From the IMG/VR virus record IMGVR_UViG_3300025735_000007, positions 32,001 to 96,000 of that record: 64,000 nt of DNA; one strand, given 5' to 3'. Within the stretch, counting starts at the first letter, position 1; each line of letters opens with the position of its first letter. Shown piece by piece: positions 10,706-48,131 of this stretch. Source of the DNA: a virus (Duplodnaviria; Caudoviricetes). The position numbers and the translations under genes were made by a program. The notes beneath the pieces were generated by a model. That model was given only the letters and a program-made list of their open reading frames with translations. It made no database searches and was not told where the DNA came from.

Positions 10706-11067
10706 CCTACACGACCATGCCGTTTTGCGACCTGCTGGACAGCTCCAAGTTCCAGCCGGAGAAAGAGAACCCCGCGCTTGCCTCGAAGATGGACGGCGGC
10801 TATGTAGTCACGCGGCCGCGGCACACGCGTCGCCCGCGTCGCACCTTCACGCTGGGCTTTACCGACTTCTCGGACGCCCAGCGCGCCGCCGTGGACCAGC
10901 ACTTCGACGACATGCACGGCGGGTCTTCGATCTTTTACTTCGTTCACCCCGTGAGCAAGGAAACGATCCTGGCCCGCTACACCACCGACACCACGCTTCA
11001 GTGGACTTACAGCGGCTCCGGGCATACGCCATTGTGGAGCGTCACTTTCAAGGTTCAGGAGGCATGA
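10702..11067 (+). CDS. Distal tail protein (lambda M-like)
   Basis: Synteny after tape measure; DGGY..R and F.F..P motifs. Confidence 0.65.
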   Translation: MTYTTMPFCDLLDSSKFQPEKENPALASKMDGGYVVTRPRHTRRPRRTFTLGFTDFSDAQRAAVDQHFDDMHGGSSIFYFVHPVSKETILARYTTDTTLQWTYSGSGHTPLWSVTFKVQEA

Positions 11068-11068
11068 C

Positions 11069-11704
11069 ATGCCAAACCCGCTTTCCGTAGCAAGCATCAT
11101 CGAAAAGAACAAGCTCGGCAGTGACGTGCCGTATCTCGCGTTCCTCGATGTGGGTGTGATCGACCCGACGACGGGGACCGTCACGGAGACCCTGCACTTC
11201 GTCAACAACACCGAGGACATTGTGCGCGCGGGCGTGACATACACCGCAATGCAGTTTTCGCTGGAGCTCAAGTCGAAGGCGGGCGCAGCGCCGCAGATCG
11301 ACCTGTCGATTCTCGACTACACGCGGATGGTCATTCAGAAGATGAATGACTATGGTGGCGGGGCGGGGTTTCCGGTAACGGTCATTGTCTGCGAGACGGA
11401 TGCGCTCAACGAGCAGCCGGACATCCAGGAGTATTTCGAGATCGTCACTGCCACGGCAGACAACTACGTCACGACCTGGACGCTGGGCGCTGAGAATGCG
11501 CTCACAAAGCAGTTCCCCCGACGCATGCAGCGCCGCGACTTCTGCCAGTGGCAATACCGCGACGGGCGCACCTGCCGCTATAACGGCGCACTGCCAGCGT
11601 GTGACCACACCTTCAGCGGTCCGCTCGGTTGCAAGATGCACGACAACGTGATCAATTTTGGCGGCCAACCGAATCTGGTGTCCAGCAACATCTTTGTGGC
11701 GTAA
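11069..11704 (+). CDS. Minor tail protein (lambda L-like)
   Basis: C-terminal CQWQYR..C.Y...CD....GC...N..NFGG cysteine cluster. Confidence 0.8.
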   Translation: MPNPLSVASIIEKNKLGSDVPYLAFLDVGVIDPTTGTVTETLHFVNNTEDIVRAGVTYTAMQFSLELKSKAGAAPQIDLSILDYTRMVIQKMNDYGGGAGFPVTVIVCETDALNEQPDIQEYFEIVTATADNYVTTWTLGAENALTKQFPRRMQRRDFCQWQYRDGRTCRYNGALPACDHTFSGPLGCKMHDNVINFGGQPNLVSSNIFVA

Positions 11705-11705
11705 A

Positions 11706-12101
11706 ATGAATAAGTCACACATGACTTACACAGACTTGCTCGGCCGACCGTTTTCGATGGGCGGCCGCGGACCCGACGAATTCGATTGCTATGGGCTCGT
11801 CAAGTTTCTGATCGAACGCGACACGGGGCACTCAGTGCCGGATTACGTCACCCCGGCGGCAATGGGCGCGGTGCACGCGCTGATGATTGTCTCGCGCGAG
11901 TTCTGGACTCGGCTGCCGGGGCCGAAGGTGGGCTCGATGGTGTTCTTCAGGCTCGGGCGCCAAGTCTGCCACGTTGGCTATGTGATAAGTCACACGTTAT
12001 TTATTCATGCGTGGGAAAAATCAGGCGGCGTGACGATCGAACGGCTCGCCGCCTGGGAAAAACGGATTGATGGATTCTATGAATACACCGAAAAAGCGTA
12101 A
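11706..12101 (+). CDS. NlpC/P60 tail protein (lambda K-like)
   Basis: FDCYGLV, HVG and FIHA catalytic motifs; start may be 11721. Confidence 0.8.
   Translation: MNKSHMTYTDLLGRPFSMGGRGPDEFDCYGLVKFLIERDTGHSVPDYVTPAAMGAVHALMIVSREFWTRLPGPKVGSMVFFRLGRQVCHVGYVISHTLFIHAWEKSGGVTIERLAAWEKRIDGFYEYTEKA
11711..11728. promoter_or_regulatory. 18-bp palindromic operator (perfect arms)
   Basis: TAAGTCA CACA TGACTTA. Confidence 0.75.
11986..12003. promoter_or_regulatory. Intragenic 18-bp operator upstream of the J-like gene
   Basis: TAAGTCA CACG TTATTTA. Confidence 0.6.
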
Positions 12102-15100
12102 GGCAGCACCGCAGTTTGTCAGGGTCCGCCGCATCACCAATCCGTTCGAGCCGATGCGCGATCTGCGCGACGAGCAGTGGAAGTGGCGCAAGACCTACAC
12201 GCTCGCTGACTATCTGCCGCTCGGTGAGACGGCCGACGTAGTGCTTTCCGTGAACGGACAGGTGGTCGAGCGCGAGCACTTTGCAAAGACGAAACTCCAG
12301 CCGACCGACTTCGTGGTGATCTGCCCGGTGCCACGCGGCGGTGACGGCGGCAAGGGCATTTTGCGCATTATCGGCATGATCGTAATCGCGGTGGCTTCCG
12401 TCTACACGGGCGGCGCAGCATCGGCCGCGTATGGCCCGATGGCAGGTGCCGCCGCGGCAGCCGCCGTTACGGTCGCGGGCACATTGCTGCTGAACGCGAT
12501 CCTGCCGCCTGCGGCAGCGACCAACAGCATGAATGGCGGGCTGGCGAGCAGCTCTAGCTACGGCGTCGACGGCGCAAAGAACACCAGTTCCGAAATGATC
12601 CCGGTGCCTGTCCCATACGGCACTTTCCGCACCGCGGGCAACGTGATCGGCGTGCACACCGAGGCAAATGGCAACGACCAGATCCTCTATATGCTGATCA
12701 ACGCCGGCGAGGGGCCGATTGCGTCTATCACCGACATCGAGATCAATGGCCGCAAGATCAATGAGTTCGCAGAAGTGTCCGTGCAGACGCGGCTCGGCGA
12801 CCCTTTGCAAACGCCAATCGACTGGTTTTCGTCGGTCATCACGCCCTACCAGAAGAACCAGGAGATTCCGAAAGATGGCAGCTACCTGACGTTCGCGACC
12901 GAGGGTGACGTTGAGGCAGTTCGCCTCGACATCAATTTTCCTTCGGGCCTGTATGCGGTCGATATGAAGTCCGGCTCGGTCGTCGAGAACAAGATTGCTC
13001 TCGAGGCCGACTACCGTATCGCTGGCAGCAACGGCAGCTGGACACCCTTCAGCTCGCAGCCTGCCACTTACGAGATGGTGCAGGTCCAGCCGGTCACCAG
13101 CGTCGGCATTGGCAACCTCCCGGATCAGCGTCTCGCGTATGTCGATGGTGATTCGGGTATCCCGTGGGATGGGACACAAGTCATCACGGACCTGCACATC
13201 ACTACACCGGTCGGCACTGTCCTCGACACCACGCGCGATGCCATTTTTGCGAAGTTCGGCAGCTATATCGGGCAGAACATTGGAAGCTGGCCTGTCGGCT
13301 CTGGCGGCATAGTGGCGACTTCGGTGGCGATTCCGCCACAACCGGGCGCGCTCGTGATCAAAGAAAAGCTGCGCAGCGTTGTGCGCCGCAGCTACACGTC
13401 CCCGCAGTTGCCGATGGGCAAGTATGAGGTTCGGTTGCGCCGCGACGCGAACTACATCGACTATGGCGCGAACAAGGCGGGGGTTGGGCTGACGAACACC
13501 GAAGCAACGTCGTCATCCGACTGCTACGTGTCCGATCTCAATGAAATTGTTTACGCCGGGGTCGGCCATAACCACACGGCACTGCTTGCGCTGCGCGTGA
13601 AGCTCGATGAGCAGCTTTCCGGTATTCCAACCGTCACGTTCGTGAACGGCGGCCGGATCATTACGACGTTCCAGCGCGCGAACGGCGTCATCACGACGAA
13701 GGAAGCGGCAACCAACAACGCGGCATGGGTGCAGTGGGACGCGCTCACGCACTGGCGCTATGGCGCGGGCATCGACGGGGGCCGCCTGGATCTCTCGGCG
13801 TGGATCGACTGGGCCGAGTATTGCGGGGCGAATGGCCTCACGTTTGACGGTGTGTTCGACACGACCATGAACGCGTGGGACGCCTCGAACTACATCGCGC
13901 GCGCGGGCCACGCGCAGCTGGTCCCGGTCGGCACACGCTATTCGATCATTATCGAGCGCCCTTCCGAGCCTGTGATGCTCTTCGGCATGGGCAACATCGT
14001 CGAGGGCACGTTCAAGCAGAGCTGGATGTCGCGCACTGACCGTGCGACCGAAGTGGACGTCACGTTTTTCGACAAGACGGACAGCTACAAGCAGAAGACG
14101 GTGAAGGTGACCGATTCCGCCGCAGCGCTCGAGGGGCGTCCGCAGAACCCGTCGGCGATCACGGCCTATGGCGTAGTGGACATCAAGCGTGCCTATCTCG
14201 AAGGCGCGCTGCAGATGAACATCAACCGCTACCTGACTCAGACGTGCGAGTGGGATTCGCCGATCGAGGCGCTCGCGTGCACGCACGGCGACGTCGTGCT
14301 TGTGCAGCACGACCAGCCGGCGTGGGGCTTCTCAGGACGAACGGAGAGCGGCAGCACCGCGAGCGTGGTGAAGCTCGACAAGCTCGTCACGATGGAGGCG
14401 GGCAAGACCTACAAGCTCCTGCTCCTCGGTAGCACCGCGGTGCGTAACACGGGCACCATTGGCAGTGTGTCGGGCACCTTCATCGCCGTGCCAACGCCGC
14501 CCAATGTGCGCATTCGCCGCATTCGCAATGCCGCAGGAGTGGAGACGGCAGTTAAAACAGTCGTGAGCGATGGCGTCTATGCTGAATCGACGACCGGGTT
14601 TGCTCCGGGGCAGCGCGTCACGTTCTATGACACGGACGTCATCGAGGAACACGACGTCGTGGTGCAGCCCGGCGAAACGGATGCCGTCACGGTGACCGCA
14701 CCCCTGTCGTTCGTGCCCGATGTGTTCACGAATTACCTGTTTGGCGAGACGACGAAGGTCAAGAAGCCTTTCCGCATCACCTCGATCACGCTGGGCTCGA
14801 CCGACATGCAGCGGCATCTCTCGGCGCTTGAATACCGCGCGGAGGTGTATGACCTGTCGAGCTATGCCGATGTTGCGAACACGCTCACGCCGCCGTTGCT
14901 CGATCCGCGGCAGGCAGCGATCGGCGTCGTGCAGAACCTCTCCGTGTATGAGGAGACCTACGTCGCTGGCGCGCTGATCCTGACGGACGTGCGGGCATCG
15001 TGGGTGCAGCCGTTGATCGGTAACTATGCCGGCGCCGACGTCTTCCTCCAGATCAACGGGGGTGACTTCAACAAGGTCGGCACCGTCAAGGTCGGCACGA

Positions 15101-32147: not shown

Positions 32148-33531
32148 CATGACATCCTGTCAGGCGCTCAACGCGATCGAGCGTATCGCGGCGACGTCGA
32201 GCAAGAACGACAAGCAGGCGATGGTGAAGCAGTTTCTCGCCTTCGGCACCTTCAAGCGCGTGCTGGTCGCGGCGCTCGATCCGCTCGTCACCTACGGCAT
32301 GCAGAAGGTGCCGGATCGCATCGAAGGCGCGGCGCCCGGCGCCAATACGTTCGAGAACGCGCCGATCTGGGAGACGCTCGACAAGCTCGCGAAGCGCCAG
32401 CTCACCGGCAACGAGGCATTGAGCGAAGTCCAGCGCCTCATGACCTTCCTCACGCCGCAGTCGGCCGAGCTCTTCAAGCGGATCATCCGCAAGGATCTGC
32501 GCGCGGGCTTCTCAGAGTCGACCGTCAACAAGGCGTGGAAGGGGCTGATCCGCGAGTTCCCGTATATGCGCTGCGCGCTGCTGAAGGACGCGAAGCTCGA
32601 TACGTGGACGTGGGCCGAAGGCGTGATCTCGCAGGAAAAGGCCGACGGCATGTTCATGAACCTCGACACCGAAGCGGGCGGCATCGTGCGCCTGACAAGT
32701 CGCGCTGGCTCGCCGTTCCCCATCGAAGCGTTCGAGGAGGTCGCGAAAGACGCGCGCAACACGTATGCGCCGGACACGCAGACGCATGGCGAAATGGTCG
32801 TATTCGTTGACGGCCAGATCGCCGCGCGCGAGATCGGTAACGGCATTCTGAATCGCGTTGCCGCGGGCGGCGCATTCGAGGCCAATGAGCGCCCTGTGTT
32901 CTATGCATGGGACCAGATCCCGCTAGAGGCAGTCGTGCCGAAGGGTAAATACGAGGTTGGTTATCGGGATCGTCTCAAGGCGCTGCTCACGCAGCAGGTC
33001 AAGAACGCGGGCGTCGATACGGCCATTCGCGTTATCCCGACGCGCATCGTGAAGTCATTTGAAGAGGCGATGGCGCACTACCGCGAGTTGCTCGCGAAGG
33101 GCAAGGAAGGCACGATCATCAAAAACGGCAACGCGATCTGGAAGGATGGCACGAGCAAGGAACAGATCAAGCTGAAGCTCGAAGTGGACGTCGATCTGAA
33201 GATCACAGGCATCGCACCGGGGCGCGCGGGCACCAAGAACGAGGGCCGCGCCGGCGCCTTCAACTGCTTGAGCGCCTGCGGCAAGCTGCGTGTCGATGTG
33301 ACGGTCAAGAACGAGGATTTGCGCGACGCAGTTGACGCGAACGGCGATGACTTCATCGGTCGCATCATCGCGGTGCGGGCGAACAGCGTCATGAAGCCGA
33401 GCGAGAGCAGCGAGTTCTATTCGCTGTTCCTGCCGCGCATGGTCGAGGCGAGCTATCGCGCCGACAAGACCGAAGCCGACAGCCTCGAATCGATCATCGC
33501 GCAGTTCGACGCGGCAGTGAAGGGGGCGTAA
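32140..33531 (+). CDS. ATP-dependent DNA ligase
   Basis: EKADG adenylation motif, HGEM, EGTIIK, KLK, LFLPR. Confidence 0.9.
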   Translation: MTHMTSCQALNAIERIAATSSKNDKQAMVKQFLAFGTFKRVLVAALDPLVTYGMQKVPDRIEGAAPGANTFENAPIWETLDKLAKRQLTGNEALSEVQRLMTFLTPQSAELFKRIIRKDLRAGFSESTVNKAWKGLIREFPYMRCALLKDAKLDTWTWAEGVISQEKADGMFMNLDTEAGGIVRLTSRAGSPFPIEAFEEVAKDARNTYAPDTQTHGEMVVFVDGQIAAREIGNGILNRVAAGGAFEANERPVFYAWDQIPLEAVVPKGKYEVGYRDRLKALLTQQVKNAGVDTAIRVIPTRIVKSFEEAMAHYRELLAKGKEGTIIKNGNAIWKDGTSKEQIKLKLEVDVDLKITGIAPGRAGTKNEGRAGAFNCLSACGKLRVDVTVKNEDLRDAVDANGDDFIGRIIAVRANSVMKPSESSEFYSLFLPRMVEASYRADKTEADSLESIIAQFDAAVKGA

Positions 33532-33782
33532 TGGAACAACTGACACTCCCCGCAATTCTCGCGGCATCGCCAGCGCCCTGGCGCTCGCAGGTGAACTTCG
33601 ATGGCATCGGCGGCTGCCGCATGCTCGACGCGAACGGCATCGAGGTGCCGCTCCTGTCGATGATCGCCTTCAGCGGCATCATGTCCGCGACGATCGCCGT
33701 GAAACAGGCAGAGGCCGCACAGGCAGCGCAAACGGCCAAAGCCGCGCAATATGCGAAGCAGCAGGAGGCGACCACATCATGA
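33531..33782 (+). CDS. Hypothetical protein
   Basis: Translationally coupled to ligase. Confidence 0.55.
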   Translation: MEQLTLPAILAASPAPWRSQVNFDGIGGCRMLDANGIEVPLLSMIAFSGIMSATIAVKQAEAAQAAQTAKAAQYAKQQEATTS

Positions 33783-34123
33783 AGCTCCGACTGTTCGAGC
33801 GCGCGCTCGTCGCGCTCGGCCTGGTGCAGCCGGTCGTCAAGGGCATCGCGGACGCGATCCGCGATAACCCCGAGACGTTCCGCATGCACAGCGGCAGCCG
33901 CACCTTCTCGTTCGTTGCACACCGCAGCCGCGTCTTTTCGGTGCTGCGCTTTGACAACGACGACAAGGCCGTGCCGGTGTTTCGCGTCATCAACAAGCTC
34001 GGCAACGAGATCATCACGCTGACGTGGTGGGATCGACTGGTGCTTGCGCTTGCGTGGCCCGATCACCTCCTGCCCGAGTATTACTTCAACCCGGGCATGC
34101 TCGCGTATTACGCGCACGACTGA
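33779..34123 (+). CDS. Hypothetical protein
   Basis: ATGA overlap, GGAGG RBS. Confidence 0.55.
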   Translation: MKLRLFERALVALGLVQPVVKGIADAIRDNPETFRMHSGSRTFSFVAHRSRVFSVLRFDNDDKAVPVFRVINKLGNEIITLTWWDRLVLALAWPDHLLPEYYFNPGMLAYYAHD

Positions 34124-34144
34124 CACAGCAGCGCCTCATCCACG

Positions 34145-34169
34145 AACCCGGCCAAGGGCCGGGTTTTTG
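34145..34169 (+). terminator. Intrinsic terminator
   Basis: AACCCGGCC-aag-GGCCGGGTT-TTT. Confidence 0.75.
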
Positions 34170-34237
34170 CATTGAGGAACGACTCGACACGGGGTAAACA
34201 GGGCCAGTATCATGTGCGGAATATTGGAGAAGGGCAC

Positions 34238-34639
34238 ATGGCCTATAAGACATTCACGCTCGGGGACTTGCGCGCGCTGCTCGCGCCGCTCCCAAATACC
34301 CGCAAGCAAGCGGTGCTCTACACTCTCGACACGCACGGCACGCTCGACCACACGATGATCCTCGGGTGGAAAGAAGCGCTGCGCATGCCCGCGAGCGACT
34401 TCGCCAAGGACATCATCCGGGCACAGCCGCGGCACCTGCGGCTCGATTACGTGTTCTGGGAGTATCACGAAAATGGGCAAGCAGCTCCGTTGTTCGGGCT
34501 CGAAGATAGCGTTAGCGAGGTTACTTTGGGTCGCAGCTTCGCTGACTTGCAGGCGCTCTACGATCGCATGATCTGGATCGACACGCAGGTCGAAGCGCTG
34601 AACTTCGTGCGCGACCTGAACATGGTGCTGGAGAGCTGA
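34238..34639 (+). CDS. Hypothetical protein
   Basis: GGAG RBS before ATG 34238; coding bias. Confidence 0.55.
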   Translation: MAYKTFTLGDLRALLAPLPNTRKQAVLYTLDTHGTLDHTMILGWKEALRMPASDFAKDIIRAQPRHLRLDYVFWEYHENGQAAPLFGLEDSVSEVTLGRSFADLQALYDRMIWIDTQVEALNFVRDLNMVLES

Positions 34640-35121
34640 TGGATTGGTCCATTGAAGGATGGTGGGTCTTGGTCAATGTGGTGGTAGCCGCATTGGGGCC
34701 GTGGATCGCCAACATCGTGCTCTGGGGATTGGAGCTCATCGGCGACCCAACAGCGGAGTGGCGGCAGGGGGACGCTTATAGGGATGGACAGATGGGTTTC
34801 GTGGCGGTTGGATGGAGTGCAGCCGCGCTTTATGATATTGCGACGCACCCAAAGCTCTGGCCGAATCCAAACCCGGGTTTGACACAGATGGGCCTGATCA
34901 TTGCGATTGTCGGCGGGGCGCTCTTTGCCGCTGCCGGCGCCCGCAAGCCTGTGGTAGGGCGATTGCCAGCCGCTATTGCCGGGCAGTCTCTATGGGCAAG
35001 AGTAAAGCGGCGGTTTTTCTTCTATCAGGCGTTCTCACTGACCCTTTTCTTTAGTCTGCTATCATTGTTCCTGATGCTCGCCGTGCATTTCAACGTCGCA
35101 CTGAGCGAAGCAAAACCGTGA
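34639..35121 (+). CDS. Accessory multi-pass membrane protein
   Basis: About four hydrophobic segments; atypical codon usage. Confidence 0.55.
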   Translation: MDWSIEGWWVLVNVVVAALGPWIANIVLWGLELIGDPTAEWRQGDAYRDGQMGFVAVGWSAAALYDIATHPKLWPNPNPGLTQMGLIIAIVGGALFAAAGARKPVVGRLPAAIAGQSLWARVKRRFFFYQAFSLTLFFSLLSLFLMLAVHFNVALSEAKP

Positions 35122-35122
35122 G

Positions 35123-35308
35123 GTGAATATGGATCATCAAGGCCAGCATTATCAGCATCAGGTCGAATTCTGGGTGTTCCTATTCGGCTGGGTGCTCGCG
35201 GGCGTCGGCTTCATTGCGATGGCGTTTAGCCTTGCGCCGCAGATCGGGCCTCTGGTCAGAGCGGTGGCAACCGCCGTTGCTCGATACTGGTCGAGCGTCA
35301 TATCGTGA
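35123..35308 (+). CDS. Small membrane protein
   Basis: One hydrophobic segment; start may be ATG 35129 after GAGGTG. Confidence 0.45.
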   Translation: MNMDHQGQHYQHQVEFWVFLFGWVLAGVGFIAMAFSLAPQIGPLVRAVATAVARYWSSVIS

Positions 35309-35330
35309 GTCCGGTCAGCTAGTAACTGAC

Positions 35331-35564
35331 TTATCCGTTCCCGTAGTTTTCATCGATCCAGCGCTTCACCGAAGCCGTCGACCGAGTCTCCGCCTGTTCG
35401 CGTGTCTCGAAGTCGCCGAGGTTACTGAATACGAAGTGCTTCCCGAGGTAGTCTTCCTCGGTCGCATGGCACTCGATGACCGCGCAAGCACGATACAGTT
35501 TGCCGAACATTATCGGTGCGGCGTCAATCGACCACTCGCAATACTCGCTGTTCCGGCTCATCAC
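35331..35564 (-). CDS. Small hypothetical protein
   Basis: GAGG RBS; last gene of a minus-strand three-gene unit. Confidence 0.5.
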   Translation of the reverse strand: MMSRNSEYCEWSIDAAPIMFGKLYRACAVIECHATEEDYLGKHFVFSNLGDFETREQAETRSTASVKRWIDENYGNG

Positions 35565-35570
35565 GGCGCC

Positions 35571-35777
35571 TCACTTCGATTTTGCTGCCTGCGGATCGAT
35601 GCCATGCGCTCGCAGAGTCGCACGAAGTTTCCGGTTGTCGACGTAAAGGCAAACCACCGCCACGATCGTGACAACAGGGAAAAACCACTGCCCCGAAAAA
35701 TGCAGGATCACCCAGGCTCCAGCCGCGCATGCGGCGGCGGCCAGTAGCAGTGCAACTTTGTCCATGGTCGGGCTCAT
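35571..35777 (-). CDS. Small two-TM membrane protein (immunity-like)
   Basis: ATG overlaps the upstream stop; two hydrophobic helices and a basic tail. Confidence 0.55.
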   Translation of the reverse strand: MSPTMDKVALLLAAAACAAGAWVILHFSGQWFFPVVTIVAVVCLYVDNRKLRATLRAHGIDPQAAKSK

Positions 35778-36226
35778 GAGAAACGACGCCCCGCAACGAA
35801 TGCATAGTTCGAACGGGAGGCCGTGTTCATCATGACCTCCGGATGGCGACTCAGGTAAGCATACATCGCAGCCGGGATGACAACACCGGTGCGTGATGCC
35901 CACTGGCGAACTGATGAAGTGGCCGCGACCTTGTTTGTGCACACCATCGCCACGTCTGCCGCAACGATCAGGCTACCGATAACGGCACCGATATACGCAG
36001 AGGCGCTCAGCGCGCCCACAATACCCAGCAATTCCAGGCCGGTCGTGGCGCCAATCATTTCAGCCACAGTAGCCGCCGGGCCAACGGCCTTAAAAGCATT
36101 GAGCATCGCGGCAAGGTTAGCCGTGGCGGTCTGCAAAGTCGAGAACAGGCTGTTCGGCGCCGGCAAACCGAGCGCTGCCATATTTTGCTGAAACGCTCTC
36201 GCGAAATCACCACAAACCACGGCCAT
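35774..36226 (-). CDS. Gly/Ala-rich hydrophobic protein (bacteriocin/pore-former-like)
   Basis: GAGG RBS; long GxxxG/AxxxG-rich hydrophobic core. Confidence 0.55.
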   Translation of the reverse strand: MAVVCGDFARAFQQNMAALGLPAPNSLFSTLQTATANLAAMLNAFKAVGPAATVAEMIGATTGLELLGIVGALSASAYIGAVIGSLIVAADVAMVCTNKVAATSSVRQWASRTGVVIPAAMYAYLSRHPEVMMNTASRSNYAFVAGRRFS

Positions 36227-36311
36227 AGTAAGCCTCACTAGAATCGAATTGTCTAATGATAGCAAAGGACAAACGAAGCCAAGGCATATCATGAAGAGAG
36301 GCTATGATGCT

Positions 36312-36346
36312 TTCTCCACAAGCTTATGCACAGAAATTGTGGATAA
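36312..36346. promoter_or_regulatory. Cluster of three DnaA-box-like 9-mers
   Basis: TTCTCCACA 36312-20, TTATGCACA 36324-32, TGTGGATAA 36338-46 (perfect box on the minus strand). Confidence 0.55.
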
Positions 36347-36377
36347 CGTCCTCGACGCGGGGCGCGCACGGGTGCGG

Positions 36378-37085
36378 TCAATTGAATGGGCCAGCGCCGC
36401 CAAAATCCAAACCGTCTAGCGGGTCGATTAGGTGTGCGCCGTCAGTGTCGGAGCGATTGACCATTTGAGATACCGGGAACCATTCAAACGCGTCCGGCGG
36501 CACGCATGCGTTAAGTGCGAGCATGCGCGCCATCTCTGGTGTCGACTGAGCATCGAGCCATGTGCGCGCATCAGCCGCCGTGAAGACAACTGGCCGACGA
36601 TCGTGGATCACCGCCAGCTCGCCTTCAGCTGCGGTCGTCACGACCACAAAGCCGTCACCGTCGCGCGGCTCGGCACCGGGCTTGGTGCTGCACAAGCCCG
36701 CCATGTAGATCGGCTCACGGCTTTTCAGGCGAATGAAATACGGATGCTTCTTTCGGTCCTTCCCGACGATCCACTCGAACCAGCCATCGGCGGGGACGAC
36801 GACACGACCACTCTTCCATAGCCACTTCCAGGCCGATCCATCTGCCTTTTCGACGGTGGCATTGATCATCGGCTTCAGACCCTTGTCGGCGGCCCACTTC
36901 GGGCGGTATCCCCAATGCGCGCGGGCCGTAGTTCCGTTAGGGAAGATGATCAGTTGCCCTTTGCCCGGCGCTACGTTCCAGCTCGGGTGATGCGACGGAG
37001 GTTCGGGTTCCGCTCTACCGGTATCGGTCATCAGCGGAACGACGTAATCGAGTCCTGCACGAGCCAGAACGTATCGTCCGCACAT
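36378..37085 (-). CDS. SOS response-associated peptidase (SRAP/YedK/HMCES family), abasic-site protector
   Basis: N-terminal MCGRY, NVAP, WG..P.W, PADGWFEW, IHDRRPV. Confidence 0.92.
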   Translation of the reverse strand: MCGRYVLARAGLDYVVPLMTDTGRAEPEPPSHHPSWNVAPGKGQLIIFPNGTTARAHWGYRPKWAADKGLKPMINATVEKADGSAWKWLWKSGRVVVPADGWFEWIVGKDRKKHPYFIRLKSREPIYMAGLCSTKPGAEPRDGDGFVVVTTAAEGELAVIHDRRPVVFTAADARTWLDAQSTPEMARMLALNACVPPDAFEWFPVSQMVNRSDTDGAHLIDPLDGLDFGGAGPFN

Positions 37086-37159
37086 GCGCTTCTCCTGACG
37101 TGCTGAAACAGGCGTGGCTAGGGTGTTATTTCTGGCACGCCTGCCTGCGTCAGATCCAT

Positions 37160-37525
37160 GCCTGGTAACACCAAACCGCGGCTTCGGGTAACAAAATTGG
37201 TGACAGCCGAGAAATGCTAGGGGGCTGGCCGCGCTTGTCGGGCACTTGCGCCGTCACGGAATAGGAATGATAGACTGCTTCGACAAGAGGTCCGAGAGGA
37301 CCTCCTTGTCGAAACGCCATGGAATCGGCGGTGCCTCGACAGCCGCGCGAACATGCGCGATGAACGCCTTGCGCGCTATCTCGCGACCGCCGAGCGACGC
37401 CAGATGCGACGTGTTCTGCTGGCAGTCTATCAACGCTAGCGTAAAAAAATCCTTATAAATCAATCGCTTGGTTTGACTGTTTTGGCAAAAAAGTCGCCCA
37501 AGCGGTAACAAAAACGGTAACACGA
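37160..37525. other. Putative attP: arm-type repeats, IHF site and host-gene fragment
   Basis: GGTAACA at 37164, 37187, 37504, 37516 and GGTGACA at 37199; IHF consensus AATCAATCGCTTG 37458-70; directly upstream of the integrase. Confidence 0.7.
37254..37433 (-). pseudogene. aat: 3' fragment of leucyl/phenylalanyl-tRNA-protein transferase gene carried in attP
   Basis: [28 protein letters not shown]...PPIPWRFDK matches the Aat C-terminal motif IDCQ....H.ASLG..EI.R; the 5' part is absent. Confidence 0.75.
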
Positions 37526-37545
37526 AAATCAGCACGGGATCAATT

Positions 37546-38811
37546 GTGTCAAAGCTCAACAACCGCATCATCGAACGAGCCAAACCAAGCCCACGTGACA
37601 AGTATATTGCGGACGGCGATGGTTTGTTTCTTCGCATAACGCCGAACGGAACAAAAACTTTCTGCTTTCGCTACACATGGGGCAAGAAGCGGCGGCTTCT
37701 GTCGCTCGGGCCATTTCCGATTCTTTCGATTGCAGAAGCACGGGAGAGGGCGAACGAAGCTCGGCGGCAAATTTTCCTCGGGGTTGACCCTATCGAGCAC
37801 GCTCAGGCCAAACCGGCCCAGCCGGACTGCCCGACTGTCAGAACTCTGATCGCTAACTGGGCCGATCGGTATGCCAAGACCAACTACAAGCGTCTCGACA
37901 CGCAACTCCGGATGATTGAGAAAGACATCCTGCCAGTTATCGGCTCGGTGCCGGTCAAGGACATTACAAAAAAGCATGTCTCCCAAGTCATCAACAGGGT
38001 GGTGGACCGCGGCGCGAAGGTGAAAGCGAACAGAGTGCTTTCTCTCATGAAGACAATCTTCGGTTATGCGGTCGAGCACGGAGAGATCGACGAATCGCCC
38101 GTCACGATGACGAGGAAAGGGGCGGGTGGGAGGGAAAGGCCGAAGAACCGCGTGCTCGGCGCAGATGAGATCAAGGTCTTCTGGACGGCGATCGAGACCC
38201 ATTCAGGGTTTATGAGCTGGCGCACAAAACGCATCCTGCACCTAATCCTCTTAACCGCTCAGCGTCCGGGTGAGGTTGCAGGAATGATGTGGGACCATGT
38301 GGACCTCAAAAAAGGGATCTGGCAGCTACCGGCAGAACTGGTCAAATCCGAGCGTAACCATGTCGTTCATTTGTCAGAGCAAGCTGTCAAGATTCTTGAG
38401 TTCGCGCGAGGGCGATCGGCCGGGGGCCGTTATGTTTTTCCTAGCGCAAGGGAGAAGGGGAAACCAACAGGGACGCAGACGCTGTCCTTGGCGCTGCTCC
38501 GGATGTTTAAAAATGGGGAGTTCAATGCCATGAAGCCCTTCACACCTCACGACCTGCGACGGACGGCGGCTACGCGAATGGCTGACATATCGGTGCACGC
38601 CCACATTGTGGAGAAAATCCTGAATCACAAAATGAAAGGCGTTATGGCCGTCTACAACTATGCGGAGTATCTGGACGAGCGCCAGCAGGCCCTTATCGCC
38701 TGGGGTAACTGCGTTGCTCGCTACGCTGATGTCTGGTCGACGGAGGCCGCAAACGGCAACGGCCCATGTGTTCCTGAAGATGTGTCGGCCGAGTCAAGCG
38801 GTGGACGGTAG
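37546..38811 (+). CDS. int: Tyrosine integrase with N-terminal arm-binding domain (P4-like)
   Basis: [20 protein letters not shown] arm domain; TAQRPGE, K, HDLRRT, LNH, VYN catalytic set. Confidence 0.93.
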
Positions 38812-38818
38812 ACAAAGA

Positions 38819-38845
38819 AAAGCCCTGTTCAGCGACAGGGCTTTA
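38819..38845. terminator. Likely bidirectional terminator between convergent int and repressor
   Basis: AAAGCCCTGT-loop-ACAGGGCTTT. Confidence 0.65.
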
Positions 38846-38869
38846 AAGGGGAGGTGCTTTTCTGCAACA

Positions 38870-39325
38870 TCACTCCGCAGTCTTGGAGCGATTCAGCTTT
38901 GTCGGATGCTTGTGATGTTCCTTCAAAGCGGCGCGGATGGCTGCGTTCAACTTCGGGTCGCTAAAGTCAATGCCGGCCCCGTCGGTTTCTTCATCGACGA
39001 TTTTCTGGAATGCCTGCTGTGTCGGGGTGATATACCGGTCGCCGACTACCTTCTCAATGACCTCCCATGCTTCAGGCATGTATTCGGTCATCACGATGCG
39101 CAGTAGGTTAGCTGGGTCGAGGCCAAGAGACAGCGCCATCGCATTAACCTTGTTGATAGGCAGCTTCGACTTGCCCTGCTTGAACATCGTAATGATGTTC
39201 GGGTTCTCATAACCTAGTTCCTGCGTGATCTGGCGCTGAGTCTTCCCGCTCATGTCGATCGCGCGCTCTAAATACTCGGCGACCGTCAACTTCGTTGCTC
39301 GTGGCTTTGCCTGTTTCGCGGCCAT
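38870..39325 (-). CDS. XRE-family HTH regulator, candidate master repressor
   Basis: KTQRQITQELGYENPNIITMFKQGKSKLP HTH; divergent from the early operon; palindromes in its upstream region. Confidence 0.8.
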   Translation of the reverse strand: MAAKQAKPRATKLTVAEYLERAIDMSGKTQRQITQELGYENPNIITMFKQGKSKLPINKVNAMALSLGLDPANLLRIVMTEYMPEAWEVIEKVVGDRYITPTQQAFQKIVDEETDGAGIDFSDPKLNAAIRAALKEHHKHPTKLNRSKTAE

Positions 39326-39355
39326 GTGGACCTCCCTCTCGTTATTTGGATACGT

Positions 39356-39557
39356 TCAGTAACGCATGACTTTCCGACTGACGGGGAACATCAATAAGCA
39401 ATGACTGATGCTACCCTGATGCGAGCAATTATAGACAACAATTCTGCGTGCCAAGCAGATTAGCCCGGCATTTGTTCAGGAATTGAAAACAGAGAGCGTC
39501 GTTCTGGTTTCGATGGAACCTTATGTGCGCTCTATAATATAAGTCATCGGTTACATA
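39356..39557. promoter_or_regulatory. Divergent control region with three operators
   Basis: TCAGTAA CGCA TGACTTT 39356-73; TCAATAA GCAA TGACTGA 39391-408; TAAGTCA TCGG TTACATA 39540-57 next to TATAAT 39533-38. Confidence 0.65.
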
Positions 39558-39598
39558 TCTGACAAACCGAAAATCAACCACAGAGGAATAGACCAGCC

Positions 39599-39838
39599 AT
39601 GCTGCAGAACTTCACCATCGTCCCCCTGAGCAACGAGCAGGCAATCGTTCTGCGTGCTGAGACGATTGACGTCGGAAGCACACTGGACGGGGGTTCGATG
39701 CAATCGACCATCTGCCGGCATCCCGAATTCGGCAATCTGATCGTCATTGAGAACACCTGTGGTTCCTCCGCCGTAGCGCTCGATAAATCGCACATTGAGA
39801 AGTTGAGCAACCGGTTATCTCCGCGCCCGACGAACTGA
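39599..39838 (+). CDS. Small hypothetical protein
   Basis: GAGGA RBS; TATAAT at 39533-38 upstream. Confidence 0.5.
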   Translation: MLQNFTIVPLSNEQAIVLRAETIDVGSTLDGGSMQSTICRHPEFGNLIVIENTCGSSAVALDKSHIEKLSNRLSPRPTN

Positions 39839-44786: not shown

Positions 44787-47700
44787 TTGAACATCAAGCA
44801 CCTCCTGTCCGCGCGCAGCGATTTCTCGCTCGGCGAGTCCACCTTGCAGGTGGGCAAGCTGATCGAGCGCGCGAAGGAACAGGGTTATGAAACCGTCGCA
44901 CTCGTGGACAACATGACCATTTCGAACATGGTCGCGTTCACCGACAAGGCGAAGAAAGCGGGCATCAAGCCGATCGTCGGTTGCACGATCCGGGTTGTCG
45001 ATGATCCGACATATCGCAAGCCGGCGAAGACGTCGGGCGAGGCCGAGAAACCGAATCCGCTGATCAACCTGAAGGTCTACGCGCAGACGGACAAGGGCAT
45101 CCGTTCGCTGATGAAGCTGCTCTCCAAGGGCAACTCGCCGGAATATTTCTACTATCACTCCCGTGTCGGCATCGAGGATGTCCTCGCGCTGGAGGACTGC
45201 GCGATCTCGACCGGCGACTTCTACGGCCTGTTCCACCACAAGCGCTACGACGAAATCTTCTGGCGCCTCGTTCAGGTGCACGGCACGCGGCTGTGGGTCG
45301 AGTTCGTGCCGGGCAACACGCCGCTGCACAAGACGCTGAACGCTCGCGCGCTGGAGGTCATGCACAAGTATGAAATGCCCCCGATCGGCACCTGGCCCGC
45401 GCTCTACGCGACCGAGGATCAGGCCGACTCGCTGGACGTGCTGCGCGCGATCCTGAACAACAACAAGATGACCGACCGCTGGCTGAACAAGCCCTACGTG
45501 CGCGACTTCTGCATCAAGGCGCCCGGCGACGTGGTGCGCGCGCTGGTCGGTCAGAGCCTGCCCGCGAAAGAGATCATTGCTGGAAATCAGGCGCTCGTTG
45601 ACTCCTGCACCTACGAGTTCAAGAAGCTCGAGCCGTGCCTGCCGAAGATGGCACCGGACGAATTCAAGGCGCTGTGCGCCGAGGTTGCCAAGGGCTGGCA
45701 GCTGCGCTTTTCGGCGCCGGTGCTCGGTCATCAACCGTTGCCCGAAGACCTGCCGCAATACAAGCAGCGTCTCGCCTACGAGCTCGAAACGCTGCGCAAC
45801 ATGGGCTTTTCTGGTTACTTCCTGCTGGTGCAGCACATCGTCCAGTGGTCGAAGAGCAACGGCATTATCGTCGGCCCGGGCCGCGGTTCGGTGGGCGGCT
45901 CGCTGGTCGCTTACCTGATGGGCATCACGGACGTCGACCCGATCCGCTTCAATCTGTTGTTCGAACGTTTCATCAACCCGGAGCGTCTGGACTTGCCCGA
46001 CGCCGACCTCGACTTCATGTCGAAGCGCCGCGCCGAGGTGATCGAATACATCGCCGAGAAGTTCGGGCGCGAGAACGTCGCCGGGGTGTCGAACTACAAC
46101 ACAATGGGCGCCGCGGGCGTCATGCGTGATACGAGTCGCGTCCACGAGCTCAACCCGTTCGATTATGCCTGCTCGAAGCAGATGGAAAAACAGCACGGGG
46201 TGTCGCTGTCGCTCGAGGAATCCGCCGCGATCGTGCCGGAGATCGACAAGTTCAAGGGCGCCTACCCGGAAATCTGGAAGCACATGATCAACCTCGAAGG
46301 CGCGACGCGCGGGCTCGGGCAGCACGCCGCGGGCGTGATCGTCGCCGGCGAGCCGATCGTCAACCGCGCGGTGGTCGAAACCCGCACCGGCGGCCCGGTA
46401 TGCAACTGGGACAAGCGCGTGGTCGAGGACTGGGGGCTGATCAAGATGGACATCTTGGGCCTGACGAACCTCGACGTGATGAAGCTCGCCTCAGACTACA
46501 TCGAGGAGCGGCACGGCAAGAAGATCGACTTCCTGCGGCTGCCACTTGACGATAAAAGGGTCATGGAGGCATTTGGGCGCGGGGACACAACGGGCGTGTT
46601 CCAGTTCGAGTCGCCTGGCATGCGGCGTCTGTTGCGTGAAATGGCGCTCGCGGGCTCGGTGACATTCGATGATCTGGTCGCCGTCGTTGCACTGTATCGC
46701 CCGGGTCCGCTGGATGCCGGTCTGTGCGACGACTACGTGGCGATCAAGCAGGGTGCGAAGATGGCCTACTACGAGCACCCGAACATGGCCCCGGCGCTGC
46801 GCGACACCTACGGCGTGATCGTGTATCAGGAGCAGGTCATGCAGATCGCGCGTGACCTTGCGGGCTTCACGTTTGCGGGCGCCGACCATCTGCGTAAAGC
46901 GATGGGTAAGAAGGACAAGGAGAAGATGGCCGAAATGCGCCAGAAGTGGGTCGACGGCTGCATGTCGCACTCTGGCATGACCGAAGGCTCTGCCAATGCG
47001 CTGTTCGACAAGATCGAGGTGTTCGCAGGCTATGCCTTCAACAAGTCGCACTCGGTCGAATACGCGGTGATTTCCTTCTGGACGATGTGGCTGAAGGTCA
47101 ACTATCCGGCCGAGTTCTTCGCGGCGTCGCTGACCGAGATCGACAAGGAAGAAAAGCGCGAGCCTCTCGTCATGGACGCGCGGCGCATGAACATGCAGGT
47201 GTTGCCACCTGACGTGAACCGCTCAAGCGCGCGGGTCGAGATCGTGGGCGAGGACAAGCTCTATGCCCCGTTCCAGGCGCTCAAGGGGCTCTCCACCAAC
47301 GCGGCAGGCTATATCGTCGATGCCCGCACGAAGTGGGGCAAGCCATTCGAGAACCGCACCGACCTGGATGCGGCGCTGAAGGCTGCCGGCTACACCGGCC
47401 GGCACATCAACCAGGCGGTCAAGGACAAGCTGGTGCTCATCGGCGCATTCGCCGAGTGCGAGGGCGACAAGTTCCCCGCCATGCACCCCGATCGGCTGAA
47501 GAATCGCATCGAGCTACTGCCAGGGTTCACGGTCGATACTGTGAAAGCAGACAGAACGCTAAACGCTGAAAGGCTTGCACTGCTTGAACTGGTGCGCATC
47601 GCAGAGGAAACGCGGGCGTGCGAGAAGTGCTCGCTGAAGGGCGGGTGTCATCCGATGCCGCGCATCGGCAAGACGCCGAAGTTCATGGTGGTGTCCGACA

Positions 47701-48131
47701 ACCCGAACTGGCAGGAGGAGAAGGCGGGCAAGCTGCTCGAAGGCGACAACGCGAAGCTCGTGATCAACGCGCTGAAGGAAGCAGGGCTCTCGGCTCACGA
47801 CGGCTATTTCACCACGCTGGTGAAGTCCGGGAAGCCGAAGGACCAGAAGACGCTCACCAACGAACAGATCAACGGATGCTCGGAGTTTCTCAAGCGCGAG
47901 CTGGAGATCCTCAAGCCGCCGGTCATCGTCACGCTGGGCAGCAACGCGGCGCGCTTCTTTGCGCCGGGAGTGAAGGGCGGCTCGATGGAGCTTGCGGGCA
48001 AGGTGATCTTCGATCCGAAGCTCGACGCCTCGATTGTCTTTGGCATCAACCCGGGACAGATTTTCCATGACCCGGGCAAGTATTCGATTTTGCAAACCGT
48101 GGCTACGAAAGTGGCCGACCTGATCACTTAA
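44787..48131 (+). CDS. dnaE: Family C DNA polymerase (DnaE) with C-terminal UDG-family-4-like domain
   Basis: GPGRGSVGGSL, LLFERF.NPER, PDADLDF, GVFQFES, YAFNKSH; C-terminal CEKC...LKPPVIVTLGSNA. Confidence 0.9.
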   Translation: MNIKHLLSARSDFSLGESTLQVGKLIERAKEQGYETVALVDNMTISNMVAFTDKAKKAGIKPIVGCTIRVVDDPTYRKPAKTSGEAEKPNPLINLKVYAQTDKGIRSLMKLLSKGNSPEYFYYHSRVGIEDVLALEDCAISTGDFYGLFHHKRYDEIFWRLVQVHGTRLWVEFVPGNTPLHKTLNARALEVMHKYEMPPIGTWPALYATEDQADSLDVLRAILNNNKMTDRWLNKPYVRDFCIKAPGDVVRALVGQSLPAKEIIAGNQALVDSCTYEFKKLEPCLPKMAPDEFKALCAEVAKGWQLRFSAPVLGHQPLPEDLPQYKQRLAYELETLRNMGFSGYFLLVQHIVQWSKSNGIIVGPGRGSVGGSLVAYLMGITDVDPIRFNLLFERFINPERLDLPDADLDFMSKRRAEVIEYIAEKFGRENVAGVSNYNTMGAAGVMRDTSRVHELNPFDYACSKQMEKQHGVSLSLEESAAIVPEIDKFKGAYPEIWKHMINLEGATRGLGQHAAGVIVAGEPIVNRAVVETRTGGPVCNWDKRVVEDWGLIKMDILGLTNLDVMKLASDYIEERHGKKIDFLRLPLDDKRVMEAFGRGDTTGVFQFESPGMRRLLREMALAGSVTFDDLVAVVALYRPGPLDAGLCDDYVAIKQGAKMAYYEHPNMAPALRDTYGVIVYQEQVMQIARDLAGFTFAGADHLRKAMGKKDKEKMAEMRQKWVDGCMSHSGMTEGSANALFDKIEVFAGYAFNKSHSVEYAVISFWTMWLKVNYPAEFFAASLTEIDKEEKREPLVMDARRMNMQVLPPDVNRSSARVEIVGEDKLYAPFQALKGLSTNAAGYIVDARTKWGKPFENRTDLDAALKAAGYTGRHINQAVKDKLVLIGAFAECEGDKFPAMHPDRLKNRIELLPGFTVDTVKADRTLNAERLALLELVRIAEETRACEKCSLKGGCHPMPRIGKTPKFMVVSDNPNWQEEKAGKLLEGDNAKLVINALKEAGLSAHDGYFTTLVKSGKPKDQKTLTNEQINGCSEFLKRELEILKPPVIVTLGSNAARFFAPGVKGGSMELAGKVIFDPKLDASIVFGINPGQIFHDPGKYSILQTVATKVADLIT

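Follow-up and report, generated by a model that had tools for sequence, protein, structure and literature searches.

The stretch of DNA considered here (the window) is 64,000 nt long and corresponds to bases 32001-96000 of the 106,295-bp IMG/VR record IMGVR_UViG_3300025735_000007, a Caudoviricetes genome that is 96% complete according to CheckV. Within it, the gene for a tyrosine integrase (int) lies beside a short piece of the bacterial gene aat, which encodes the leucyl/phenylalanyl-transferase (L/F-transferase, Aat) of the bacterial N-degron pathway. On the left of this pair are phage genes for tail proteins, DnaB, primase and ligase, and on the right are genes for CobT-like, MoxR-like, DnaE and SbcC proteins. 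The first-pass annotation of this DNA, which was made from the sequence alone, had read the locus as an intact phage attachment site (attP) carrying a replacement 3' end for host aat, in a molecule that was not integrated. The last point holds, because phage genes on both sides of the site mean that the contig is the attP form. The remainder is considered below against host genomes, metagenome contigs and related elements, and the features of the locus are collected in Table 1 (positions are those of the window unless the record is named).

The integrase, also assigned to the integrase family phrog_1, has the three domains of an arm-binding enzyme, as had been proposed, all of them above their Pfam cut-offs (PF13356, E 3.7e-23; PF22022, E 9.2e-16; PF00589, E 8.8e-25). 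The putative catalytic Arg, His-x-x-Arg, His/Trp and Tyr can be read off the translation in this order, in TAQRPGE, HDLRRT, LNHK and VYNY. When the elements of the attachment site (att) are counted from GATAGACTGCC on the aat-sense strand, the core and the aat copy occupy 0 to +127, and the 34-nt block that begins at 37432 is nearly invariant in seven aligned att sites. The P arm sites, TGTTACC at -91 and TGTYACC at -79, are kept in six att sites, and the 12-bp-spaced P' pair (TGTCACC-N5-TGTTACC, same strand) at +224 to +245 is present in all three sequences that cover the P' arm, including the attP on contig L141 and the left junction (attL) on contig L137, both described below. Exact GGTAACA occurs four times in the 64-kb window, with every copy on the plus strand within the att stretch of ~360 bp, where about two copies would be expected anywhere in the window. 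The first-pass annotation was right about the pairs of repeats on either side of the site, but its copy at 37199 is in fact GGTGACA, and a further exact copy at 37164 had been missed. The exact consensus for IHF that it reported was found again, and this match stands at -39 in five of the six sequences that share the arm layout (the window, L130, L134, L135 and L141). Neither the arm motif nor an IHF match is found in the att site of a more distant element, L047, whose integrase is ~60% identical.

Table 1. Features of the attachment locus and its surroundings in the window.
Feature	Position	Strand	Remarks
Integration cassette	35331-38850		77-aa open reading frame (ORF), 172-aa ORF, SRAP, attP, int; sits where related phage-plasmids hold TrfA/ParA or RepA/ParA
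SRAP (YedK-like) cargo gene	36378-37085	-	PF02586, E 1.6e-45; next gene downstream of the P' arm; oriented like the restored aat
P' arm-type sites	37164-37205	+	GGTAACA at 37164 and 37187; GGTGACA at 37199
Fragment A'	37221-37278	+	inverted copy of aat codons 176-195 (host segment just upstream of the crossover); 55/58 to host
Palindromic hairpin between B' and A'	37279-37313		FDK codons TTCGACAAG, GGTCC, 4-nt loop, GGACC, CTTGTCGAA
Fragment B'	37305-37432	-	MIDCQQ...WRFDK, aat codons 192-234; 127/128 to G562; exactly this span matched in 210/213 genomes; restores the gene once integrated
Interval holding the strand-exchange point	37338-37432	-	core starts at TGATAGACTGCCAGCAG; from comparison of attR and host alleles
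IHF consensus	37458-37470	+	WATCAANNNNTTR, exact match; between the P arm sites and the core
P arm-type sites, 12 bp apart	37504-37522	+	GGTAACA at 37504 and 37516
Heterobivalent tyrosine integrase, 421 aa	37546-38811	+	Arm-DNA-bind_3, Phage_int_M, Phage_integrase; phrog_1
Helix-turn-helix (HTH) regulator	38870-39325	-	right border of the cassette; conserved in integrative and plasmid-type relatives

The minus strand from 37445 to 37254 contains an Aat C-terminal reading frame of 43 residues, followed by a tail of 16 residues and a stop codon. Taken in isolation, the fragment matches the Pfam family Leu_Phe_trans below threshold (E 0.0027), over the last 21 positions of the profile (150-170 of 171). 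A tblastn comparison (a back-translated scan with one genome per species) aligned it with the C-terminus of full-length Aat ORFs of 245-253 aa at all 80 Burkholderiaceae loci returned, and one of these matched ORFs was identified as PF03588 with E 1.3e-72, its domain covering residues 36-210. In nucleotide comparisons the match covers 128 nt, from 37432 to 37305 on the minus strand, and was seen in 210 of 213 genomes representing Paraburkholderia species, the best being a Paraburkholderia genome designated G562. The edge of this homology is constant: it starts at 37432 in all 210 genomes, and in none does it extend into the 113 nt that lead up to the integrase gene. The fragment is therefore the 3' end of a host aat gene, as first proposed.

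Evidence of insertion comes from the right junction (attR) of the same phage, which is present on a metagenome contig from ENA (L128). Here an integrase gene 98% identical to that of the window is followed by the same HTH (99%), 79-aa and CobT-like genes as in the window. To the left of the P arm, phage sequence gives way to a native aat 3' end with its native tail, a 114-nt spacer and the start of bpt, and this flank is 99.7% identical to G562 over 300 nt. In a three-way comparison of attP, attR and host, the junction falls at 37432/37433, with phage sequence down to 37433. The sole difference between attP and host in the 128-nt block is at 37338, where the attR carries the host base. Since the attR is of phage type to 37433 and has the host base at 37338, the crossover took place between 37432 and 37338.

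Relatives are integrated at the same nucleotide. In the chromosome of Paraburkholderia sp. BL17N1 (L127), an integrase gene of 88% identity is flanked on the left by an aat 3' fragment, bpt and pyrD, and the metagenome contigs L130, L134 and L135 (integrases 73%, 72% and 69% identical) combine a bpt-pyrD flank with CobT-type phage genes. Both junctions were found together on contig JALYFC010000024.1 of a metagenome-assembled genome (MAG), of which L134 and L137 are the ends. At its attL, a phage ligase region and the P' arm precede an intact hybrid aat of 249 aa (PF03588), which adjoins host NUDIX and moeA genes. The element between the two junctions is ~60 kb long, its capsid gene stands directly before PhoH and DnaB, and a tail module is missing; the probable explanation is decay of the prophage or a gap in the MAG assembly. 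A smaller element, of 5.4 kb, lies in aat of Burkholderia sp. IMCC1007 (L047:10006-15860, the element with the ~60% integrase) and is bounded by direct repeats of 411 bp (99.3% identical) that start at GATGATAGACTGC and take in the 3' end of aat and the beginning of bpt, a duplication far longer than that of the phage. Altogether, the integrase homologues that adjoin aat or bpt are 60-98% identical to that of the window. The prediction that the bacterial attachment site (attB) lies in aat near its MIDC codons agrees with the homology edge shared by 210 genomes and with the attR and attL junctions at that same nucleotide.

Other elements have used this site. The right flank of the BL17N1 integrase (L127:10001-21230) is not phage DNA but an island with DUF4365, serine recombinase, two RepB/ParB, Abi_C and ankyrin genes. 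Because this island has the 88% identical integrase and the same P arm, the int-attP module is common to the 106-kb phage and to another type of element. Remnants of 0.8-2.2 kb were also seen between aat and bpt in several Burkholderia and Paraburkholderia genomes (L029, L035 and L053 at ~10200-11100; L055 at 10200-12400; G416, loci L122 and L125). They consist of a pseudogene of the integrase N-terminus (MSRFNNRPIERARP...), a P arm and ~50 nt of aat that form a partial second core, and are old scars of aat-targeting elements.

In the mechanism that we propose, the integrase, which is of the P4/CP4-57 type, would bind the GGTRACA repeats on both arms as well as the core, and IHF would bend the P arm. 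Strands would be exchanged in the first 95 nt of the 128-nt host-identical block, with the core TGATAGACTGCCAGCAG at codons M192-I-D-C; the exact overlap region is likewise inferred. Integration would thereby split aat; the phage codons 192-234 and the new 16-residue tail would rebuild an intact gene at attL, and the native 3' end would be left beside int at attR, upstream of bpt. The homology edge, the conserved layout and the attR and attL junctions uphold the central claim of the first-pass annotation, and on these sequence comparisons 37164-37522 very probably works as the attP of a ~106-kb temperate siphovirus that infects Paraburkholderia, inserts in aat and restores the 3' end of this gene.

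Several observations weigh against this reading. The attL of the window phage itself was not recovered, so that its own attR is paired with the attL of a relative whose integrase is 72% identical, and the only relative that is integrated and seen from end to end is the ~60-kb element without tail genes, which may be defective. No lysogen was found in the 213 Paraburkholderia species-representative genomes, a weak negative given that only 4-8 candidates were scored per genome; under the same scoring, the integrase search of these genomes together with 399 Burkholderiaceae genomes returned a single match, of 54% identity, and no lysogen. A 54% homologue in Cupriavidus, probably beyond the limit of the aat specificity, adjoins a CDP-alcohol phosphatidyltransferase gene and not aat, and no tRNA gene was detected near it. 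A distance of 217-268 bp, greater than in lambda, separates the P' arm sites from the crossover core. Finally, family searches and comparison with relatives gave no excisionase candidate among the cassette ORFs (77 aa, 172 aa and SRAP). The 77-aa ORF has a weak HlyU-like match (E 0.009), the other small ORFs of the cassette have no family match, and none of the three is common to other int-bearing relatives.

The attP form recurs in other assemblies. A second contig from the Joint Genome Institute (JGI), L132, of 106,278 bp, is 99.98% identical to the record, has the same attP and is identical across att. It maps to record positions 17-106294, the record ends being 1 and 106295; the two assemblies thus stop at the same places, within 17 nt, which suggests that the ends are physically fixed, or that a terminal repeat was collapsed, and not that the contigs broke at random. 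Two Logan contigs end at 37253 and 37403, which are calculated branch points of a k=31 graph on host-identical sequence.

Between the aat copy and the P' arm lies a further feature, which the first-pass annotation overlooked. The replacement tail of Aat is encoded by a hairpin and by the reverse complement of aat codons 176-195 (fragment A'), which supplies the last tail residues and the hybrid stop codon (37254-37256). Fragment A' contains a second, inverted core, TGATAGACTGC, at 37268-37278, and this 11-nt sequence is common to A' and B'. The 10-mer GATAGACTGC occurs exactly twice in the window, at 37269-37278 (plus) and 37422-37431 (minus), where 0.06 occurrences would be expected by chance. 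The same layout of aat copy, hairpin, GTCTATCA, ~45 nt of inverted upstream aat and P' arm is present in the attP of contig L141, which is of the type with a 73% integrase, and in the attL of L137 (72%). Both have the hairpin too, with one compensatory change (GGTCC/GGACC vs GGCCC/GGGCC). The inverted segment tracks the host of each phage: against the best-matching host, A' and B' agree at 51/54 and 126/127 positions in the window (Paraburkholderia) and at 49/54 and 124/127 in L141 (Caballeronia), and A' of L137 agrees at 49/54 with the host copy on the same contig, where B' is not independent, being part of the same attL. Compared with the host copy of the other phage, A' agrees at only 41/54. 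It is absent from native aat loci, from the Burkholderia remnants and from the 5.4-kb element.

In a lysogen, the host codons 176-195 and A' would lie 143 nt apart, and integration would therefore create an inverted repeat of 54-58 bp, with a 143-nt loop, around the restored gene end. The natural attL transcript has a computed fold of -163.6 kcal/mol (z = -9.7); in the free phage, which can form no more than the hairpin and the 11-bp core pair, the corresponding values are -105.9 kcal/mol and z = -3.6. A scan of 36900-37700 predicted neither promoters nor terminators, and the hairpin is not a canonical intrinsic terminator. A strict hairpin pattern had no matches in JGI metagenomes or in the 213 genomes, being so strict that it would miss L141; a relaxed one gave only chance matches in an unrelated AT-rich phage in IMG/VR; and an arm-plus-core pattern in metagenomes returned L141, a contig already known and the unrelated L142. 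The notion that A' is an assembly artefact was rejected, given that A' is identical in the second 106-kb contig and partly present in an independent Logan contig, and that the layout recurs in two other lineages. A 70-aa antisense ORF that opens with TTG on the plus strand (37246-37458) spans A', the hairpin and the opposite strand of the aat copy; it shares its frame with the MIDC codons in A' and is probably a by-product of high GC.

Beyond the att site, the cassette as a whole has been exchanged. By DnaE, the closest relatives of the phage are circular Cupriavidus plasmids of 106-107 kb (56%), followed by Acinetobacter plasmids of 107-115 kb (49-50%) and RHEph10-like Rhizobium phages (44-46%), and its conserved phage core and replication genes follow the order seen in the AB/RHEph10-like phage-plasmids. 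The flanks of the cassette are shared with a 109-kb contig of Paraburkholderia sp. RCC_158 (L138), on the left ligase (82%), p162 (91%) and p52 (81%) and on the right HTH (54%) and CobT (69-83%), and the interior is replaced. GC falls to 0.50-0.58 across the cassette, below that of the flanks. In the slot where the window has its two small ORFs, SRAP, attP and int, L138 carries TrfA and ParA, a Cupriavidus plasmid (L126; DnaE 56%) TrfA and MipZ/ParA, a JGI contig (L140; ligase 75%) H-NS, ParE/PaaA2, RepA_C and ParA, and a contig of the B. vietnamiensis type (L139; ligase 76%) nothing. Seen against these four, the gap between the ligase cluster and HTH/CobT (33531-39838 in the window) is a hot spot for alternative maintenance cassettes. 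SRAP was not found beside att in the relatives examined. With int-attP in the place that replication and partition genes occupy in close relatives, the phage is an integrative derivative of a phage-plasmid lineage, and this arrangement of genes points to replacement of one module by another, not to two coexisting lifestyles. A pair of ParB_N genes near the terminase occurs in the relative represented by L137 and also in the plasmid-type relatives, so that it is not their partition system. Elsewhere, the DnaE-type polymerase at 44787-48131 has a C-terminal UDG-like domain, and PF03167 is found together with Pol III alpha domains on the homologues of L130 and L139.

Three other accounts of the locus concern what the aat copy and the integrase do. 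The aat piece could be a moron or recombination debris without any role in integration, the integrase being aimed at another site. Phages do carry host gene fragments and the fragment on its own falls under the Pfam threshold, but junctions between a P arm and native aat were seen for the window phage and five relatives, and an attL junction as well; the attR and attL contigs contradict a mere captured fragment, and we give this account almost no credence. It could also be argued that integration is favoured by selection for its effect on Aat, and through Aat on N-degron proteolysis, and in every lineage the tail is indeed replaced by a similar peptide (x-V/A-L-x-D/G-L-L/V-S-K-S-I). The first-pass annotation had supposed that some 60 C-terminal residues would be swapped. 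As a statement about the source of the DNA this is right, about 58 codons of the hybrid gene being supplied by the phage, but only the last 11 residues of the protein would change. In the best-matching host the predicted hybrid has 250 aa against 245 in the native enzyme and is identical to it through K234, after which the native TALLDVLARAA gives way to 16 phage residues. These lie outside the Pfam domain (36-210), and the first seven of them mimic the native tail, so that the design looks conservative, like that of other attP sites that restore a 3' end. The prophage would also part bpt from the aat promoter: this gene for the second N-degron transferase stands 114 nt downstream of aat in the same orientation, and integration would put it ~106 kb from that promoter. 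A polar effect on bpt is possibly a more plausible route to a phenotype than the swapped tail, and selection for altering Aat seems unlikely. The phage might, thirdly, keep a plasmid state besides the integrated one, as was suggested earlier, and in favour of this are its nearest relatives, which are either plasmids in circular form or plasmid-type contigs, of 105-109 kb. However, TrfA, its small partner protein and ParA of L138 have no tblastn match anywhere in the 106-kb record, and the integration cassette takes up precisely the place of the replication and partition genes. Family searches of the 106-kb genome, which did not include RepA_C (PF04796) as a family, found no PF07042 and, for PF01656, only a sub-threshold P-loop match in an ABC-type ATPase; on these searches the genome has neither the plasmid replication initiator (TrfA or RepA) nor the partition ATPase (ParA) of a phage-plasmid. 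A dual lifestyle is accordingly quite improbable, and integration through aat is the reading we retain.

The inverted copy is harder to place. There is about an even chance that A' and the hairpin are a neutral scar, left when an ancestral attL was duplicated by fold-back or template switching and shortened by a 108-nt deletion, then taken along on excision and held close to the host sequence, in lysogens, by gene conversion with the adjoining host copy. The structure is what such an event would leave, an inverted copy of attL (upstream segment A, core and FDK codons) that has the hairpin loop at its centre and lacks codons 196-231, and its distal edge is the same in three lineages, which suggests a single origin. 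Conversion would also predict that A' matches the host, and it does, yet less well than B' (7 mismatches in 112 vs 2 in 256, as tallied from the alignments), and elements with a ~60% identical integrase integrate without any A'. It is less easily explained by a scar that A' has been kept undeleted in lineages that differ in host genus and have integrases of only 72-73% identity, that the hairpin shows a compensatory change, that the hybrid stop codon always lies inside this feature, and that the spacing of 62 nt between the inverted core and the P' arm mirrors the 72 nt between the P arm and the core. More tentatively, the hairpin and the host-matched inverted aat may be a functional part of the att site that senses the integration state, either through the duplex or as a second, inverted core-type site. 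It could gate the expression of the restored aat and of the prophage cargo downstream on the same strand (for example if RNase III cut the duplex or read-through were blocked), assist the integrase in bridging the distance between the P' arm and the crossover, or serve as a 143-bp inversion switch for aat.

We found no paper that names aat as an attachment site, one on Treponema that was retrieved being unrelated, although the island catalogues TIGER and Islander may list it. An attP that restores a 3' end is in itself an element of a known kind; what is new is the aat target, the exchange of plasmid-maintenance and integration cassettes, the sharing of int-attP with a non-phage island and the conserved inverted segment that tracks the host. 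To our knowledge, no other attachment site includes an inverted, host-tracking copy of the DNA that precedes its crossover; should this segment prove functional, prophages would have a novel means of linking RNA or DNA structure to whether they are integrated. The aat gene, whose L/F-transferase belongs to the bacterial N-degron pathway, is defined here as the gene that one clade of P4-like integrases targets specifically in Paraburkholderia, Caballeronia and Burkholderia, and the mapped core and site layout could serve as an integration tool. That one slot holds, within a single phage lineage, TrfA/ParA, RepA/ParA with a toxin-antitoxin pair, nothing, or int-attP further shows that maintenance as a plasmid or in the chromosome can be changed by a single cassette swap.

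The closest parallel for the site itself is the insertion of phage 21 and e14 into icd, where the crossover lies in a housekeeping ORF, the phage supplies the 3' end that keeps the gene whole at attL, and the displaced piece of the native gene is left at attR. The attP of the window likewise restores the 3' end of a protein-coding gene, as the 249-aa PF03588 gene at the attL of its relative illustrates; unlike the icd case, its target is aat, its 128-nt copy is near-identical to the host and not diverged, and it has the additional inverted upstream copy. Arm-binding integrases of the P4/CP4-57 type include clades that are specific for a gene, such as the dusA-associated clade, and the target gene is restored. 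The integrase of the window has the same three-domain architecture and shows target specificity at the level of a clade, but its clade is specific for aat, down to ~60% identity. In a protein search of 50,697 deposited phage genomes, integrases were at most ~31% identical, the best cultured matches being CP4-57 IntA-like and Sf6 Int; blastn of the att-int region gave no match among deposited phages, and the core pattern in IMG/VR recovered only one related contig, which was already known. For the structure beside the site, the sib element of lambda offers no more than an analogy: it is an RNA hairpin next to attP, whose link to int depends on the integration state. Secondary structure adjoining att may be tied to integration in both phages, with the difference that in lambda integration separates sib from int, while here it would create a long duplex from host A and phage A'.

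At the level of the whole genome, the phage resembles the Acinetobacter AB/RHEph10-like phage-plasmids and the Cupriavidus metallidurans plasmid NZ_CP083720 in size (~106-115 kb) and in conserved gene order, with Hfq, DnaB, primase, ligase, CobT-like, MoxR-like, DnaE, RecA and SbcCD genes in common. In contrast to the AB/RHEph10-like elements, which carry TrfA or RepA with ParA/MipZ between the ligase cluster and HTH-CobT, it has SRAP, attP and int in this place. The AB/RHEph10 community is distantly related to the SSU5 supergroup (PMC7969092). The earlier description of the gene set as SSU5-like is thus correct as a distant relationship, but by DnaE matches the nearest described elements are the AB/RHEph10-like ones. 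Among P1-like phage-plasmids, integrated derivatives are known that still encode replication and partition genes, and the cause of their integration was described as unclear (PMC10879196). As in those cases, a phage-plasmid lineage has here yielded a chromosomal derivative by gene exchange or loss; unlike them, the phage of the window has an int-attP cassette that cleanly replaces the maintenance genes at the same locus, and its target site is defined.

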